DNA from: a virus
Lineage: Duplodnaviria; Caudoviricetes
Strand: one strand, 5' to 3'
Virus record (IMG/VR): IMGVR_UViG_3300048558_000060
Span: 1-30,096 of that record
DNA length: 30,096 nucleotides
Positions 5,599 to 27,391 of the stretch are shown here, one piece after another. Both the position numbers and the translations under genes were made by a program. Numbering within the stretch: the stretch's first letter is position 1; the number at the start of each line of letters is the position of its first letter. The notes beneath the pieces are model-generated. The model had not been told where the DNA came from and did no database searches. It saw only the letters and a list, made by a program, of their open reading frames with translations.

Positions 5599-5652
5599 AA
5601 CATACGCCGAGAAGTTGGAATCGCAGGGGGCCGAAGTTACAGAATCTGTAAC
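5599..5652 (-). promoter_or_regulatory. Candidate activator-dependent late promoter for the head genes
   Basis: -10-like TATGTT (5604-5599) 6 nt before the ATG, no good -35, perfect palindrome GTTACAGA-A-TCTGTAAC at 5636-5652. Confidence 0.5.
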
Positions 5653-5760
5653 CAAGTCGAAAAAACTTCGCGCGTCGGCCAGAAATCTCCGAAACCGGCG
5701 GCGACCTCAAAAACACCCGCCGAGCGGTCCGCCGGCTGTGTTCACTTACTTACTCAGCCC

Positions 5761-5836
5761 GAAAAAAAAATACGTGTAAATAAACCGCACAATACACCGT
5801 GCTTCGCACCCCGCCAGGCCCAACCAGGGAGTACCT
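5761..5836 (-). other. Candidate DNA packaging (cos-like) site
   Basis: Minus strand reads AGGTACTCCC, then a GC-rich stretch, then TTTATTTACACGTATTTTTTTTT; same order as lambda cosQ-cosN-AT-rich spacer (inference). Confidence 0.35.
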
Positions 5837-6218
5837 TTAACCTCGCATTCTGCCTTCCTTTCCTACATTTCCATCCAATAGCAAGCGGAAAGACAGCGGA
5901 AACCGGGAGAAAACCGCGCACAATCCCCCGTTGATTGTCGCTTTGCGGCGGGTTTTCTGCCTATTTGCACGCGGTTTTCGCAACGGCCTCGCGATCCGCT
6001 GACGCCGTCCAGCAGACTGGCCGCGGCGATCATCGAAGCGAACCCATGGCACGCGCGGCAGAAGTTTAAGGAACTATCGCCGCGTGAATTCAAGGAACAA
6101 AGGCAGCACGCCAACCCAAAAAGAATTTCCAAGATTTTTTTGGCTCCTAATCCATTGTGCCATAAGCCCTTGCGCATCGCCGCCTCTTTGTGTGTATATC
6201 ATTGCATACGTTTTCTAC

Positions 6219-6246
6219 TTGACAGCATGTTACACGCCGATATACT
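6219..6246 (+). promoter_or_regulatory. Near-consensus sigma70 promoter for the plus-strand operon
   Basis: TTGACA (6219-6224), 16-nt spacer, TATACT (6241-6246), 43 nt before ATG 6290. Confidence 0.8.
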
Positions 6247-6289
6247 TATGGCAGATTTGCGAAAACCCTTTATCCGATTGGAGCCTACC

Positions 6290-6940
6290 ATGCAGCTTTG
6301 CGAAAAGTACACCCCGAAGAATTACGCGGAATACGTTGGCCAGCCGGCCGCCCTGCGGGCGCTCGACACACTACGCAGCCGCGGCGGATTAACCGGCCGC
6401 GCCTTCTTTATCAGCGGGAAAAGCGGCACGGGCAAAACGACGCTTGCCCACCTGATGGCCGCCGAGGTCGCAGATTCTGATTACATTATGGAAATCGACG
6501 CGGAGACCTTGACCCCCGCCCAAGTGCAGGAATGGGAGCGAATTTCCCACCTTCGCGGCTGCGGCAAGGGCGGCCAGGTCTTCATCGTCAACGAAGTCCA
6601 CGGTCTCAAGCCGGCGGTGATTCGTCAACTTCTCGTGACGATCGACACGGGAAACATTCCGCCGCACGTCCTCTGGATTTTCACGACGACCCAAGAAGGA
6701 AAGGTCAATCTATTCGGGGACAAAGAAGATTCATCCCCGCTGCTTTCCCGCTGCCAGGAAATCGAGCTGGCGACGCAGGGCCTGGCGAAAACCTTCGCGG
6801 CCCGAGCGCTCGAAATCGCCCGCGCCGAGGGGCTGGACGGCCAGCCGTTGGAAAAATACGTCCGCCTGGTCAACGACTGCAAGGCCAATTTCCGCATGGT
6901 CCTGCAAAAGATCGAAGCCGGCTTCATGGTCAAGGAATAG
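6290..6940 (+). CDS. Clamp-loader clade (DnaX/RFC/RarA-like) AAA+ ATPase, 216 aa, no C-terminal collar domain
   Basis: EKYTPKNYAEYVGQ box, Walker A GKSGTGKTT, Walker B variant VFIVNE, LLSRC motif, sensor-2-like NFR; GGAG before ATG 6290. Confidence 0.85.
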   Translation: MQLCEKYTPKNYAEYVGQPAALRALDTLRSRGGLTGRAFFISGKSGTGKTTLAHLMAAEVADSDYIMEIDAETLTPAQVQEWERISHLRGCGKGGQVFIVNEVHGLKPAVIRQLLVTIDTGNIPPHVLWIFTTTQEGKVNLFGDKEDSSPLLSRCQEIELATQGLAKTFAARALEIARAEGLDGQPLEKYVRLVNDCKANFRMVLQKIEAGFMVKE

Positions 6941-7021
6941 GAAAAACCCTCCGCGCCGGAGACCGGCCGGCGCGACGATGTTTTCCCTACCCTTTCCCCT
7001 TTATTCGATTGGAGACCTACC

Positions 7022-7378
7022 ATGCAACGAATTCTTGTGACGATCGACGGCGGCGTGATTCAGGACATCGGAGCGATTCCCGAGGGCGTCGAGGTCGCAG
7101 TTTACGATTACGACACCGGCGATGGAAAGCCGCGAATTAACATCTGGTCGCACGATTCGGAAGACTTGATACTGGCGGTGCCGACGCTCCCGCCGCTGGA
7201 TTTGTCACTTAAAACCGGGGCGGAAAAGGCGGCGACCGACCTTTATTTGTCGGTAGCCGAACTCGCCCGCGAACTAGAAGGCACGCTCAACGGCGTGCCC
7301 TCCTCGGATGCGGAGCGCTGCGAGCTGCTCGGCCGTGCGGTCGCCGCGCTCGCCCGGGCGGAAGGAAAAACCCGCTAA
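7022..7378 (+). CDS. Hypothetical protein
   Basis: Repeat motif plus RBS before the ATG; N-terminal ILVTIDGGVIQDI...VEVAVYDYD. Confidence 0.75.
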   Translation: MQRILVTIDGGVIQDIGAIPEGVEVAVYDYDTGDGKPRINIWSHDSEDLILAVPTLPPLDLSLKTGAEKAATDLYLSVAELARELEGTLNGVPSSDAERCELLGRAVAALARAEGKTR

Positions 7379-7463
7379 GCCCGAACTTACGGGGCGTGCC
7401 AACACTCCCCAACGGCCCGCGCTTCGCGGAATTCAAAACCCCCTTTATTCGATTGGAGAAGAA

Positions 7464-8543
7464 ATGTCCGTTGCACAACTTACCCCACAAGAGTTCGGCT
7501 GTTTTGTGGCGATCTGCTTTCAACGCCTGAAGACCGGCCGCTCGCTGACCGCGCTTTGCGAGTTGGCCGAGCTGGCCAGCAGCGGCAACGCTGGCGCGTT
7601 CTCGGCCCAATACGGGGAGCCGGCCGAGGTCTGCACGGTTGCCGAAATTGAACGGGCCGCGATGGAATACCTCGCCGAAAAGCGCGACATGATCGCGGAC
7701 CATTTCGGGCCGCTGGCTTATAACATGATCGCCAATGACGGCGCCGCCTTCCTCGCCCCAGGCGTCGAAGTCGCCCAACAAGCGGACGCGATCGCTGATA
7801 TCTACGATCTGGAAAAGAAGGCCCGCGCCTGGCAGGACGGCGAACGGCGGGCCCTGAAGCGGGCCGAAGAAGACGCGGTCTCGTTCGATGACGTTGGCCA
7901 GCTCCCCACCTTGAGCAAAGCCGAGATCGAGGCGAAACGCCAGGCCGCGGGCGCGGATCGCGTGATTTTCGCCGAGTTTTGCGTCAACGAGTCCGACCTG
8001 ATGGCCGACTATTTCGGCGGAAGGACAAGCCGCGTTGTCGTGATCGGTTTTGGCAAGGGCAAACGGGAAAACTTCCGCCAGCTTCGCGCGGCGGCCGGAA
8101 AATTCCCGCCGACGGCCTTTATGGGGCCGGGGCTCGATGCCTGGACGGCTTCGCTGGTTTGGGACCATGATAAGGCGGACGACCCGCAGCGTGCATTTAT
8201 CGCGTTTGGGAAGGAATGGGACCCCAACCAGCCGCAGAACGGCTGCGGCGTCGTCTTTCACTATTACAGCCGCCATTATTGCGAGGGCGACACTGACAAG
8301 CCGCAGGACGGCGCGACGCTGGAGCGGTTCGGGTTCGGGTTCAACTCGAAAACGGACGCGGAAAACTGGATCGCGAAACACCCGCCGCTGGCCGGCACCG
8401 AGTGGCGGCTGTCCTGCGAGAGCTACGAAAACCGGGAAAATTATTCGATGGGCGGCGGCAATTACCTCGGCACAAGCCGTTATGGAGGCTGGAAGGTTCG
8501 CAGTTCCTCGCTTTGGCAGGATCGCTACGAATTTTGGAAGTAG
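7464..8543 (+). CDS. Hypothetical protein, 359 aa
   Basis: Repeat motif plus RBS before ATG 7464; conserved-looking blocks ESDLMADYFG and ENRENYSMGGGNYLG...YGGWKV. Confidence 0.8.
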   Translation: MSVAQLTPQEFGCFVAICFQRLKTGRSLTALCELAELASSGNAGAFSAQYGEPAEVCTVAEIERAAMEYLAEKRDMIADHFGPLAYNMIANDGAAFLAPGVEVAQQADAIADIYDLEKKARAWQDGERRALKRAEEDAVSFDDVGQLPTLSKAEIEAKRQAAGADRVIFAEFCVNESDLMADYFGGRTSRVVVIGFGKGKRENFRQLRAAAGKFPPTAFMGPGLDAWTASLVWDHDKADDPQRAFIAFGKEWDPNQPQNGCGVVFHYYSRHYCEGDTDKPQDGATLERFGFGFNSKTDAENWIAKHPPLAGTEWRLSCESYENRENYSMGGGNYLGTSRYGGWKVRSSSLWQDRYEFWK

Positions 8544-8678
8544 TCAGGCGCGAAATTTCCCCGCCGGCGTCTAAATTACGCCGGCGGGCGGCCTCGCCCG
8601 GTCCGAAATCCGGGCGCGGTTCCCGCCGCGTGGCGGGTGCCGCAGCGTGGAAACCCTTTTTATGCGATTGGAGAAACC

Positions 8679-8873
8679 ATGTCCGCTATTTTGACCGTCG
8701 AGGATTTAGGCCGAAAAGTTCTGGCTTGGCGTAAGGTATTGGAAATCGAATCGGCCAGCCGCAGCGCGGCCGCGCGGCTGATGATTAAATGGCAGACGAA
8801 CGACCGCTGGGAGGCCGTATGCCGCGAGGCCGAATCCCGCACGTTCTCGCAATTTGGAGGGCAACGCGCATGA
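8679..8873 (+). CDS. Small hypothetical protein
   Basis: Repeat motif plus RBS before ATG 8679; stop overlaps the next ATG. Confidence 0.65.
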   Translation: MSAILTVEDLGRKVLAWRKVLEIESASRSAAARLMIKWQTNDRWEAVCREAESRTFSQFGGQRA

Positions 8874-9166
8874 AAACGCCTCCAAAATCGGCCAGGGCCG
8901 CGGCGGCGCTGGCGGCCCGGATCGTCGAACACGCGAAGGAATGGCCATTCGGCGATGGCCTTGGCCGTTCCTACGACAATTGCTTCGAGGAGGGCGACGG
9001 CGACGAGGTCTATAAGCATTATATGGCGATCCTCGCCCGCCGGCCGGATCTCGTCGCGAAGCTCAAGCGGATGGGCCACTGGTGTGGGGATTATGAACGC
9101 GATATACTTTACCGCATCGAACGCGATGCTATCGCGAATAGCGCCCAAGGGCTCTTGTTCGCGTAA
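8870..9166 (+). CDS. Hypothetical protein
   Basis: GGAGG RBS and ATGA coupling at 8870-8873. Confidence 0.7.
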   Translation: MKTPPKSARAAAALAARIVEHAKEWPFGDGLGRSYDNCFEEGDGDEVYKHYMAILARRPDLVAKLKRMGHWCGDYERDILYRIERDAIANSAQGLLFA

Positions 9167-9334
9167 CGCAAAGGCGGGCGCGCCCTGCCGGAAATAAAGG
9201 GCCGGTCAAGCCGACCCTGGCGCTCCAATCCCAAGGTCGGTCCTCGGCGCGTCCGCCCCCTTTTGCTTTCCACCCTCCCGAAAACCATCAGGCGCGGTGT
9301 TTCCATCGCCCCATCTAAAACCGAGCCAAAAAAC

Positions 9335-9553
9335 ATGGTGACCACGAAAAAACAGCCGACGACGAAGGCACAAAAACCGAGCGATGTCCAGCCGCCAAAA
9401 AAGTCGAAGTCGATCCTGATTCGCGTCTCGATCGACGAACACGCGGCGATCGACGATGCCGCCTGGACCGCCCGCAAGCGGCTGAGTGAGTTCGTCCGCG
9501 ACGCGGCGCTGGCGTCGGCCGCGCAGGTGCAGAGGTTTGCGGTGAAAAAATAG
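9335..9553 (+). CDS. Ribbon-helix-helix DNA-binding protein (DUF1778/MobC-like)
   Basis: KSKSILIRVSIDEHAAIDDAA...LSEFVRDAALASA is a typical RHH pattern. Confidence 0.7.
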   Translation: MVTTKKQPTTKAQKPSDVQPPKKSKSILIRVSIDEHAAIDDAAWTARKRLSEFVRDAALASAAQVQRFAVKK

Positions 9554-9601
9554 CTCAGGCGCGTTGTTTGCCACGTCGCATCTAATTTCAAGGCACCAAT
9601 T

Positions 9602-9850
9602 ATGTTAACAGTTTTGAGGCACGGAAGACCGACTCGCATACGGATTAACAGTCTGATACGCGACCGCATCCTAACCGTCTCTAAGGTTCAGGGTGGGAAT
9701 TCGATTTTTTTTCGACCGTCCGACAGGCAAGAAGATGATCCAATAGGTTATTTCTGTGCGTTGGTAAATACCAGAAAAGTCTATGGGGAAGTGAGTGCCG
9801 ATTGCCTGCATCATTTGAACAGGCTTGGGTACGAAATCCACGTTCGCTAG
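9602..9850 (+). CDS. Hypothetical protein, AT-richer than its surroundings
   Basis: 82 aa ORF filling the gap up to the convergent gene. Confidence 0.4.
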   Translation: MLTVLRHGRPTRIRINSLIRDRILTVSKVQGGNSIFFRPSDRQEDDPIGYFCALVNTRKVYGEVSADCLHHLNRLGYEIHVR

Positions 9851-10086
9851 TTTTTTAACCGATAGGAAAACTGCCTCCCGCCGCGGCCGCCGGAGCCTTG
9901 CCGCTCGACGAGCCCGGCGTCGATCAGCTTTCCGACCGTCCGCCGCACGGCCGACGTGGAGACGCCGGTCGCCCGGGCCAGGAGCGCGACGGTCGCCCCC
10001 GGATACCTTTTTAGGGTTTTTAGAAGTTGCCGAGGAAGCGGCGTAGCGGCAGAATCTCCAGGTGCTTTTTTCGCGGCGTTCGTCAT
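9847..10086 (-). CDS. Small winged-helix DNA-binding protein
   Basis: ATVALLARATGVSTSAVRRTVGKLIDAGLVERQG. Confidence 0.75.
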   Translation of the reverse strand: MTNAAKKAPGDSAATPLPRQLLKTLKRYPGATVALLARATGVSTSAVRRTVGKLIDAGLVERQGSGGRGGRQFSYRLKN

Positions 10087-10095
10087 AAAATCCCT

Positions 10096-10686
10096 CTACT
10101 CAGTAAGCAACCGGCATTTGCGGTTCTCGGCCTGCATTCGTTCGAACAGCCTTTTCTGGTCTCGCTCGTTCTTGCATTCGACGACGACCTGAAAGACGAT
10201 CGTCTTGGGCGAGGGGTCCGGCTCGATGACAACCGGCTCCTTTTCCAACAGATCGGCGAGCTGCAGGGCATCCGCAAAAGACTCGTCCAACGGTATCGTC
10301 TCGCGGAGGTAGAGCGTCAATTCCATTTGGTCCCAGGTCGAAAGCTCGGCCGTGCGGTTGTCGGCCAGGGCGAAGGCGCGGGCCTTTTGCGCGTCGTCGA
10401 AAATGACCGCCGCGATGTGCGTCCAGCCGAGTTCTTTCCCCGCCGCATAGGTCCCGTTTCCCGCGATAATAATCCGCGTCTCGGGATGAATCACGATCGG
10501 CTTGACCTGCCCGAAGTCCGAGAGCGACTTGGCGATCGCCCGAATGCTTTCTGCCTCGTGCTTACGGAGATTTTTGGGGTCCGGCTCGATCGAGTCCATC
10601 GCGATCGCCAGCGGACGCAGCGCCGGAAGGATGTGTTCGAGCTGCGGTTCGACGTCTGAAACGAGTTGCGGTTTCTTTCTTCCCAT
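10096..10686 (-). CDS. ParB/Srx N-terminal domain protein
   Basis: PDPKNLRKH, SLSDFGQVKPIVI, IIAGNG, ALADNRTAELSTWD. Confidence 0.85.
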   Translation of the reverse strand: MGRKKPQLVSDVEPQLEHILPALRPLAIAMDSIEPDPKNLRKHEAESIRAIAKSLSDFGQVKPIVIHPETRIIIAGNGTYAAGKELGWTHIAAVIFDDAQKARAFALADNRTAELSTWDQMELTLYLRETIPLDESFADALQLADLLEKEPVVIEPDPSPKTIVFQVVVECKNERDQKRLFERMQAENRKCRLLTE

Positions 10687-25281: not shown

Positions 25282-26672
25282 TCTGCATCCTTTCGTGACG
25301 GTTGGAGCCAGGCGGGGGTTAGAAGCGTCTTCGTATGCCGGTCCATCGAGTCGATCGTGATCGCCTCGTTCATGTGCCGGACCAGCGACGCGAACATTTC
25401 CAGGGCCTTTTTCTGCTTTCGTTCCAGACCGGCCATCACGCGGGACTCGCCCGGCGCAGTGACGATATGCACGTTGACGTCGCCCTGTCGGCCGAATCGC
25501 CAACAGCGGCGAACGCCCTGATAGACTTGCTCGAACGAAAACGTCGGGAAAAACGTCATGTCGCCACAGTGTTGGAGGTTCAACCCCCAACAGCCGATTT
25601 TTCCCTTAGTCACAAGCACCCGCACGCGGCCCATCGCGAAGTCCAAAAGCCGTGATTCCTTGTCTTCCAGCGAATCCTTGCCCGCCACCTGAACGCAACC
25701 GGGAATCAGCTTCTCGAGGTAATCCCCTTCCTCGTTGTAGTGGCACCAAACAATCGCCGGCCGATCGTGATCGACCAGTTCCTTGACCCGTTCGCAACGC
25801 TCGGGAATCGTCCGTTTTCGCTCTTCCCGCTGTTCGACCAGTGAAATCGCCGGCCGCGGAAAAAGCTCGCCCGGTGGAATCCACGGCACGTCAACCAGGT
25901 GCGTTTGGTAATTCAAGGGCGGGAGGATAAACCGCGTGTCGTCGAATCCCAAATCGCTCGGCCGCTGGATGCCGCGGGCCCAGCCCACGATCCACTTCCA
26001 AAACGGCGTTTCCGAGTGCGGCTTGAACGTGTACTTGCACTGGTTCCAAAAATCGCCCTCCTTGAACACCGTGTGCCGCATGTCCTTCGTCTCGCGGAAG
26101 AAGTAGCCCAGCATGTCGCTTTGCGTCATCACGCCCAGGCATTCGCTGGCGGTTCCCAACTCGATGTAATCGTTCGGTGCCGGCGTGGCGGTGGTCAGCA
26201 GCCGGTACGGCATTTTTGAAAAGAATCTCACGACCTGCTTGCGGCGTTTTCCATCGAACGCCTTGATCGCCTGTGCCTCGTCGCCCACGGCCGCGACGAA
26301 ATCCTCCGGGTTGAAATAGTGGAGCCGCTCATAGTTCGTGACCACGATTCCGCCATGGTGTTTGCCGTCGCGGGAGTGATGCACCTCAATCCCGAATTTC
26401 TCACCCTCGCGGACGAATTGGCCGGCGACGGCCAGCGGTGTGATTATGAGGACCGGCCGGCCGGTCTTCTTGATGACGTTCTGCGCCCAAACCAACGCCA
26501 TGGGTGTTTTGCCGAGTCCGCAATCGGCCCAGATCGCCGCCCTGCCCTTGCGGAGTGCCCACTCGACCAGGTGCCGCTGAAAATCAAACAGAAAATCCGG
26601 CATCCAAAGCGGTTCGAAACCGGCATTGGGGCCGAGTTGCATTTTGGCGGTGATAAAATCGCGGTATTCCAT
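25257..26672 (-). CDS. SNF2-like superfamily 2 helicase
   Basis: LFDFQ, ADCGLGKT, TNYE, DEAQ, TATPAPND, GLNLQ, QGVRRCWRFG. Confidence 0.92.
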   Translation of the reverse strand: MEYRDFITAKMQLGPNAGFEPLWMPDFLFDFQRHLVEWALRKGRAAIWADCGLGKTPMALVWAQNVIKKTGRPVLIITPLAVAGQFVREGEKFGIEVHHSRDGKHHGGIVVTNYERLHYFNPEDFVAAVGDEAQAIKAFDGKRRKQVVRFFSKMPYRLLTTATPAPNDYIELGTASECLGVMTQSDMLGYFFRETKDMRHTVFKEGDFWNQCKYTFKPHSETPFWKWIVGWARGIQRPSDLGFDDTRFILPPLNYQTHLVDVPWIPPGELFPRPAISLVEQREERKRTIPERCERVKELVDHDRPAIVWCHYNEEGDYLEKLIPGCVQVAGKDSLEDKESRLLDFAMGRVRVLVTKGKIGCWGLNLQHCGDMTFFPTFSFEQVYQGVRRCWRFGRQGDVNVHIVTAPGESRVMAGLERKQKKALEMFASLVRHMNEAITIDSMDRHTKTLLTPAWLQPSRKDAECLSLTNA

Positions 26673-26842
26673 TACTGATCCTTCGCCCGTAAAACGTCCT
26701 GCAGCGGCTCCCGCAACAATTCGACGCACAATTGGTTCATGCTCTTGCGTTGCCGCCAGGCCGCGTCGCGGATCGCGGTATGCAGCGAGCGGGGAAGGCG
26801 GACCATAATCACCCGTGGCTTTTCTGCGTGTTTGGGGTTCAC
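26672..26842 (-). CDS. Arc/HicB-like ribbon-helix-helix protein
   Basis: VIMVRLPRSLHTAIRDAAWRQRKSMNQLCVELL; GTG start overlapping the upstream TAG. Confidence 0.75.
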   Translation of the reverse strand: MNPKHAEKPRVIMVRLPRSLHTAIRDAAWRQRKSMNQLCVELLREPLQDVLRAKDQ

Positions 26843-27183
26843 TAGACGGCCTCCAGTTCGTGCTCCCGCGCGTAGGCGTCCAGGTCGTTCTGGGCGGCTT
26901 CCAGCGTTGTCCGCGGCGGCAGGCCCGGCAGGCAAACGGGCTTGCCGTAGCCTTTCGCTCCCTTGCTGTCGGTCTCGAAAAAAGTCCGGTACTTCCCGCT
27001 TCCCCATCGCGTAACCGCGACAAACAACACGCGTCCCTCGGCGTCTCGGTACTTCATGATGCTGCGTGGCATGGCGGTCGGCCTCGCGGGTTGACGGTGG
27101 TGAATCACCGGCACGCCGGCGAAGATGTGTGAAAAGTACTCAATCACCCGCCGCCGCCCGATCGGTTGTTTCATCGGGTCCAT
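26842..27183 (-). CDS. Hypothetical protein
   Basis: AGGAGG RBS before ATG 27183. Confidence 0.6.
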   Translation of the reverse strand: MDPMKQPIGRRRVIEYFSHIFAGVPVIHHRQPARPTAMPRSIMKYRDAEGRVLFVAVTRWGSGKYRTFFETDSKGAKGYGKPVCLPGLPPRTTLEAAQNDLDAYAREHELEAV

Positions 27184-27391
27184 GACTTGGTTCCTCCTGA
27201 CTTGTGGTTCCTGGCTCCTCGCCGCCCGCGACGCGGTGCAGCGCGTCGAAAACTTCCTGCCGATGCACGGGCACGTCCTTCGGTGCCTCGATGCCAAGCC
27301 TCACCTTGTCCCCGCGAATTTCGACCAGCACCACGGTAATGTCGTCGTTGATGACGATCTTTTCACCCTTCTTCCTGCTGAGCACTAACAT
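27140..27391 (-). CDS. csrA: Carbon storage regulator CsrA/RsmA homologue
   Basis: MLVLSRKKGEKIVINDDITVVLVEIRGDKVRLGIEAPKDVPVHRQEV; GGAGG RBS. Confidence 0.95.
   Translation of the reverse strand: MLVLSRKKGEKIVINDDITVVLVEIRGDKVRLGIEAPKDVPVHRQEVFDALHRVAGGEEPGTTSQEEPSHGPDETTDRAAAGD

Follow-up and report, generated by a model that had tools for sequence, protein, structure and literature searches.

The window analysed here (30,096 nt, positions 1 to 30,096 of the IMG/VR virus record IMGVR_UViG_3300048558_000060; Duplodnaviria, Caudoviricetes) carries at 6219..9166 an operon of five plus-strand genes, genes 1 to 5, the first four of which are each preceded by a copy of a short start element, CCCTTT(TT)ATNCGATTGGAG, lying a few nucleotides before the ATG. 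This repeat is well defined, and is more than an ordinary ribosome-binding site (RBS). With slightly better than even confidence, we infer that in this phage it is a copied, open translation start which doubles as a crossover joint, breakpoints at such repeats having been observed in related arrays of small genes that carry other elements. The four copies are as follows.

6266..6283, plus strand: start element copy 1, ending in GGAG, 6 nt before the ATG of gene 1
6997..7014, plus strand: start element copy 2, GGAG-to-ATG distance 7 nt, gene 2
7441..7458, plus strand: start element copy 3, GGAG-to-ATG distance 5 nt, gene 3
8654..8673, plus strand: start element copy 4, with a longer T run, GGAG-to-ATG distance 5 nt, gene 4

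With 3 or fewer mismatches allowed, the motif CCCTTT(TT)ATNCGATTGGAG matches the window 4 times, compared with a mean of 0.05 in 100 shuffles, and its 12-nt core ATNCGATTGGAG is exact at the same 4 places with no other match in the window at 1 mismatch. This bears out a preliminary description of this DNA, which had reported start-associated copies before genes 1 to 4 and no full copy elsewhere in the window; it had also given copies 2 and 3 as identical over 18 nt, and here the identity stands with a slightly greater length of 20 nt. All four copies are asymmetric, lie on the plus strand and precede an ATG start, sharing 13 invariant columns that are contiguous but for one and comprise GGAG and positions upstream of it, with the length of the T run and position 9 varying between copies. 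The likeness is not confined to the leader: between copies 1 and 2 it extends past the ATG to codon 2, with 28 of 30 columns matching, and between copies 3 and 4 it amounts to 83% over a 35-nt stretch that includes coding sequence. With the Shine-Dalgarno (SD) masked, the upstream 20-mers of the four array genes have a mean score of 11.7, compared with 3.35 among 23 other genes of the window.

Among viral contigs, the exact motif was found only in the phage's own record and in one chance match inside coding sequence, and all 71 metagenome loci with the motif hold a single copy, even at 3 mismatches. A planctomycete is the likely host, judging from homolog names that include Pirellulales and Schlesneria and from the 15 of 301 Pirellulales genomes that carry a gene 1 homolog; one homolog of the phage proteins carries a Patescibacteria label. 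The terminase large subunit gene, terL, was found in 0 of 301 Pirellulales genomes at E 1e-40, and the gene 3 profile in 0 of 401 genomes of the phylum, such genomes being incomplete samples. The preliminary description had allowed for a motif common before host genes, and for gene content invariant among relatives. Neither was found, with a 15-nt core giving 6 single matches in 201 Pirellulales genomes of the likely host group (2 for the reversed control), and with cargo varying among related arrays. On these sequences, the motif appears private to the phage rather than part of a host RBS context.

In the mechanism that we propose, the promoter at 6219 would be read by host RNA polymerase, and every gene would have its own, independent translation start, made up of a pyrimidine-rich leader without structure and of GGAG, with GC-rich hairpins separating the genes in the transcript. 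The element copies may have arisen by DNA copying, since they resemble one another as far as the first codons. Units of element, gene and trailing spacer would be swapped when copies recombine with each other or with similar elements on incoming DNA, and because the unit exchanged includes the element, each new gene would arrive with a working start. Gain, loss or replacement of individual genes would take place at the element.

Homologs of genes 1 and 3 are found in arrays of small genes on one strand, often adjoining terminase, in which cargo and gene order vary. The loci used comprise 26 viral loci with close gene 1 homologs, 22 viral loci with gene 3 homologs and one genome locus, the 80 loci returned for gene 1 having also contained the phage's own record and 53 distant clamp loaders, which were excluded. 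The gene 1 alignment was scanned against 15/64 parts of the viral contigs and 1/64 parts of the genome contigs, the latter swamped by a generic P-loop pattern, and genes in the loci were called with a simple in-house caller that misses genes, notably in L015 and several of L215-L230. Besides the window, genes 1 and 3 co-occur only in L007 and L013. The DUF3560 proteins of L009 and L016, considered as members of the gene 3 family, were rejected as being grouped by linkage only. Start elements of their own are seen in L008, L015, L103, L007 and the L087-L101 clade. After 15 near-relatives were dropped, 9 of 31 loci (window included) have at least 3 upstream 30-mers that are at least 70% alike, compared with 0 of 9 on the opposite strand. 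The start elements of related arrays share no sequence, some being of low complexity, and several relatives repeat whole spacers of 70-140 nt. A promoter matching at least 10/12 positions precedes 6 of 31 arrays, compared with 0.6 expected.

Evidence for exchange at such elements comes from the L087-L101 clade (14 loci, 77 junctions), the members of which are mutually close, share gene 3 and are not close to this phage. The junction test, which left out one helix-turn-helix (HTH) family as downstream gene (having its own promoter-type spacer) and six flanking families, shows that, of 13 gene triples with only the upstream gene in common, 9 have a spacer identity of 0.75 or more (median 0.91), compared with 1 of 7 triples with only the downstream gene in common (median 0.53), a difference with a p value of 0.012 from pairs that are not independent. 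When both flanking genes are shared, spacer identity is 0.93, and the median in 224 sampled unrelated pairs is 0.48. In 13 of 22 pairs with a gene end at least 90% identical, identity ends at -10 to +6 of the next, different ATG. As the spacer goes with the upstream gene and identity often stops at the next RBS, the moving unit in these relatives is a gene with its trailing spacer, bounded by the RBS element. Loci L016 and L017 have in common a gene 1 homolog together with the spacer behind it; their sequences diverge directly downstream of the SD, 8 nt ahead of next genes that differ. A moving unit of this kind fits the window, where only the element is shared. The preliminary description had offered two options for the repeat, homology joints or a shared translational/processing control element. 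The former has its support from relatives, whose shared DNA gives out at the RBS element, and not from this phage's own motif; the latter is weakened in its trans-acting form, which is less likely because the element sequence is not conserved between phages.

Several observations weigh against a joint role. Identity ends earlier in 9 of the 22 high-identity pairs and in 28 of 28 pairs at 80-89%, and the junction pairs are not independent, all of them coming from a single clade with no relation to the head module of this phage. Single-protein scans with gene 1 and portal returned only the phage's own record and no close relative, so that exchange at its own motif is something we infer. Neither an element-to-element joint nor a rearrangement was found in 8 of 17 sequencing runs, all searched as contigs, which shows little since contigs drop rare variants, and two RNA runs give sparse, even cover over the region. 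No recombinase was recognised among the genes of the 30 kb contig with Pfam and PHROGs, and the shared stretch of 18-30 nt does not exceed 30 bp, the minimum for Red-beta given in a passage of PMC3945230. No repeat is detectable in 22 of the 31 related arrays, and a stricter test of whole arrays leaves only 4 of 26; with 9 of 31 loci passing the 30-mer test, the start repeat is thus common but not general in related arrays. Breakpoints at the RBS can also come from selection on random recombination.

This last point is at the core of an account in which the element is no more than a strong translation-initiation region that was copied, with genes exchanged by illegitimate recombination and breakpoints of survivors falling at the RBS since only there do both genes stay expressed. 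It predicts the same comparative pattern as the crossover-joint reading, and draws support from the shortness of the homology, from the 22 arrays that vary in cargo without a detectable repeat, and from the unstructured, pyrimidine-rich leader, with element-centred windows folding no better than shuffles (z +0.28 to +1.12) and T-rich tracts preceding GGAG at other genes of the phage too. Selection for an RBS would, however, leave unexplained why ATNCGATT is fixed in the four array genes only (11.7 compared with 3.35), why the likeness extends into codons 1-2, and why each phage has its own version of the element, and we regard this account as possible, although on the unlikely side.

The variable T run and position 9 are also at odds with the suggestion that the element is the site of a phage regulator, either a DNA operator or stoperator (for example for the ribbon-helix-helix (RHH) protein at 9335) or an RNA site, switching the four genes together. 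No copy overlaps the promoter or adjoins the RHH gene, and elements of related arrays having no sequence in common, some of them of low complexity, would not be expected of such a site. CsrA sites have an ANGGA core that the motif lacks, and it is on this consensus only that a CsrA site was rejected. A regulator site would be consistent with the asymmetry, single orientation and RBS overlap of the element, with the RHH gene after the array, with HTH genes in related arrays and with the CsrA encoded by the phage, but is decidedly doubtful overall. Asymmetry, a single orientation and RBS overlap also characterise the start-associated sequences (SAS) of cluster K mycobacteriophages, for which a passage of PMC3203893 leaves protein or RNA binding open.

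The remaining features of the operon are listed below.

6219..6246, plus strand: predicted sigma70-type promoter TTGACA-16-TATACT, 11/12
6290..6940, plus strand: gene 1, 216 aa, truncated DnaX (gamma/tau)-like AAA+ ATPase, core and lid only, Walker B NExH
6941..6996, plus strand: spacer after gene 1, GC-rich hairpin at 6952-6974 (z -1.88), without homology to other spacers
7022..7378, plus strand: gene 2, 118 aa, N-terminal ~50 aa like small stand-alone proteins
7379..7440, plus strand: spacer after gene 2, weak hairpins (z -0.28)
7464..8543, plus strand: gene 3, 359 aa, unnamed family of 105 matches
8544..8653, plus strand: spacer after gene 3, three GC-rich hairpins (z -3.81), weak Rfam match only
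8679..8873, plus strand: gene 4, 64 aa, no family match
8870..9166, plus strand: gene 5, 98 aa, overlapping gene 4 (ATGA), with its own GGAG, without the full element, no family match
9167..9270, plus strand: long stem then U-rich run, possible transcript end (z -2.46), not called as a plus-strand terminator by the scan
9335..9553, plus strand: RHH-like protein (TacA1/NikA-like), candidate regulator, a sixth plus-strand gene absent from the preliminary description

Within 5600-10200 there is no sigma70-type match besides the predicted promoter, shuffles averaging 1.4 weaker matches there, so that the TTGACA-16-TATACT promoter already proposed ahead of the operon stands as the sole such match in 4.6 kb. 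The five plus-strand genes lie, as had been described, between terminase/ParB and gpW-portal, against the direction of the phage. Spacers fold better than shuffles in 3 of 4 cases, and the spacer parts upstream of the element are unrelated to one another. Hairpin and element together might act as an RNA-processing signal that cuts a polycistronic message into single-gene pieces, for which the early RNase III sites of T7 are a precedent and with which the GC-rich hairpins before copies 2 and 4 (z -1.88 and -3.81), followed by AU-rich single strand, are consistent. This is, however, very improbable, with no hairpin upstream of copy 1, the spacer before copy 3 at chance level, and hairpins that differ in sequence and shape; Rfam yields no family at gathering level for the spacers, the one match scoring 20 bits compared with a gathering score of 70.

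The array is foreign to the head module, as the terL-portal gap is 5742 nt here compared with a median of 865 nt and a maximum of 3953 nt in 55 relatives, only 3 of which exceed 3 kb. These relatives derive from a portal alignment that gave 79 other loci, 55 of them with both terL and portal and some being near-duplicates, and no gene 1 or gene 3 homologs were found in the 79. One locus, L232, has the same terL-ZnF-ParB order and is likewise occupied between ParB and gpW, by an unrelated unit in reverse orientation whose promoter is TTGACT-16-TATAAT. This independent unit (L232:3815-5048) has three genes, an HTH gene followed by a strong promoter and two genes lacking known function.

Gene 1 is, by sequence, a member of a widespread family of collar-less, truncated DnaX-like ATPases (1785 matches at E 1e-20, mostly 211-230 aa among the 120 listed). 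Its best match among PDB sequences is DnaX gamma/tau (E 1e-19), with a Foldseek TM of 0.79 to E. coli clamp-loader chains; identity as RarA was rejected as the weaker match (4e-8 compared with 1e-19). With DnaX gamma/tau gene 1 has in common the AAA+ core and lid fold, and it keeps Walker A, sensor 1, the SRC finger arginine and the sensor 2 arginine. In contrast to DnaX gamma/tau, which has a collar, a zinc insert and a DExH Walker B, the gene 1 family (~213 aa) lacks both the collar domain and the zinc-binding insert and has NExH, the Walker B Asp being replaced by Asn in 113 of the 120 homologs listed. In AAA+ proteins generally, Asn for the Walker B Asp slows hydrolysis. Gene 1 scores 51 bits against an NCBIfam DnaX cut-off of 250, the search covering the short forms only. 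Its relatives in phage records are distant (<36% identity among 15 of 48 matches listed), and in Pirellulales prophage-like loci a serine resolvase often follows the gene 1 homolog. In PADLOC, gene 1 has P-loop-level matches only.

Genes 2-5 have no match in Pfam, PHROGs or PADLOC, a set that includes no dedicated anti-defence library, and the N-terminal module of gene 2 occurs as a stand-alone protein elsewhere. Gene 3 gives a confident model (pLDDT 93) and 105 family matches; its fold has no Foldseek match at E 0.001, the best VIA Z of 5.5 being within background, in a search that did not extend to a viral fold library. The ESM Atlas gives nothing usable for genes 3 and 5.

The cargo of related arrays is likewise poor in known families, with 127 of 150 scanned singleton proteins lacking a Pfam family (228 singletons in all). 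Named singletons include ArdC-N, DUF932, RadC and DUF2958, and families common to several arrays include DUF3560, DUF6166 and serine resolvase. Whole repeated spacers together with tandem paralogs occur at L008:4789-8104, L019:115-2847 and L015:4271-10045, the paralogs being ankyrin-repeat genes in L008 and three genes with identical N-termini in L019. A truncated DnaX-like gene occurs twice in one array at L022:7001-8520 (71% DNA identity), and a DNA polymerase III beta-clamp gene stands in a plus-strand run with a gene 3 homolog at L107:4102-5328. At L007:9896-12348, homology to gene 3 is spread over two genes, its C-terminal part beginning a 583-aa protein with a methyltransferase-like domain. 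An anti-defence or host-takeover role for the array is a candidate on the sole basis of neighbours in other arrays (ArdC-N, DUF932, RadC, DUF3560) and of the DnaX-like gene 1. More broadly, planctomycete-type phages might possess a promoter-free cassette system in which lineage-specific ribosome-binding joints of 20-30 nt swap early host-takeover genes, the commonest passenger being a DnaX mimic that lacks the collar, has Asn at Walker B and targets the host clamp loader or clamp, in a widespread and undescribed attack on host replication; this wider proposal we hold to be doubtful.

The phage is likely temperate, and bioreactor metagenome runs contain DNA of its record. By Pfam and PHROGs, its minus-strand genes include integrase-like, CsrA, SNF2 helicase, methylase, terS, gpA-type terL and ParB genes, continuing with an HTH protein and then portal, capsid/protease and cement. 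The CsrA homolog lies at 27140-27391 (Pfam E 7e-25), and CsrA genes are also present in L094, L100 and L102. The RHH-like genes at 9335-9553 and at 26672-26842 (minus strand) are paralogs (E 3.5e-4), the first lying after the array, as regulators do after some accessory operons. Upstream of the gpW-like gene, a GC-rich 12-nt stretch at 5696-5707 agrees at 11/12 positions with the lambda cohesive end, a likeness that may be due to chance; were a genome end to lie there, the array would be at a terminus. Arrays as a first-injected region were considered, since many related arrays abut terminase, and set aside, as genome ends could not be mapped.

Published literature yielded nothing on such arrays in planctomycete phages or on the truncated DnaX family, in a search largely of openly accessible papers. 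The idea of repeat-jointed gene arrays is itself not new, and the joint role is seen here only in relatives. The closest functional parallel is found in the promoter-early stem-loop (PeSL) cassettes of T4-type phages, which, in the available parts of PMC2839356 and PMC4122927, are likewise repeated intergenic elements ending in a Shine-Dalgarno and start codon before ORFans in variable regions, and are proposed to be recombination joints for gene gain, loss and replacement, the same role as that proposed here. Every PeSL copy, however, contains a sigma70 promoter and a conserved terminator stem-loop, whereas here a single promoter lies upstream of copy 1 only, and the hairpins are in the spacers, outside the repeat and mutually non-homologous. 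PeSLs also number ~50 copies per genome in large lytic phages, compared with four copies sharing 18-30 nt in a phage that is likely temperate, and mini-circles have been shown for PeSLs, compared with assembled contigs alone here. Lambdoid morons (PMC2839356, in part) are similarly own-promoter units inserted against transcription among head genes, but are single genes without conserved flanks, in contrast to a multi-gene unit with an internal repeat.

In form, the element resembles the SAS/ESAS found in mycobacteriophages of cluster K and Microbacterium phages of cluster EF, described in the available parts of PMC3203893 and PMC7302621 as short asymmetric repeats at the RBS, a few nt before the ATG (3-7 nt for the cluster K type, in one orientation). 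As here, these are conserved beyond the need for 16S pairing, stand before non-structural genes and are rare in the host (here, the likely host). They differ in being 13 bp long, in about 10-19 copies over a genome arm, and kept across a cluster, compared with four copies of a different sequence in one operon of 2.4 kb, private to one phage; half of them have 17-bp inverted repeats, which are lacking here. Those parts of PMC3203893 and PMC7302621 propose no joint role for SAS. The array thus works like PeSL cassettes, yet fails their defining promoter and terminator features, and looks like SAS. It links two published observations, over-conserved RBS repeats without a known role (SAS) and repeat-mediated gene shuffling (PeSL), and if an RBS-sized repeat suffices as a joint, SAS-like elements would be markers of cassette arrays. 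Arrays of this kind supply early phage genes that have yet to be characterised, with the truncated DnaX-like family a concrete candidate host-replication effector in a phylum with few studied phages.

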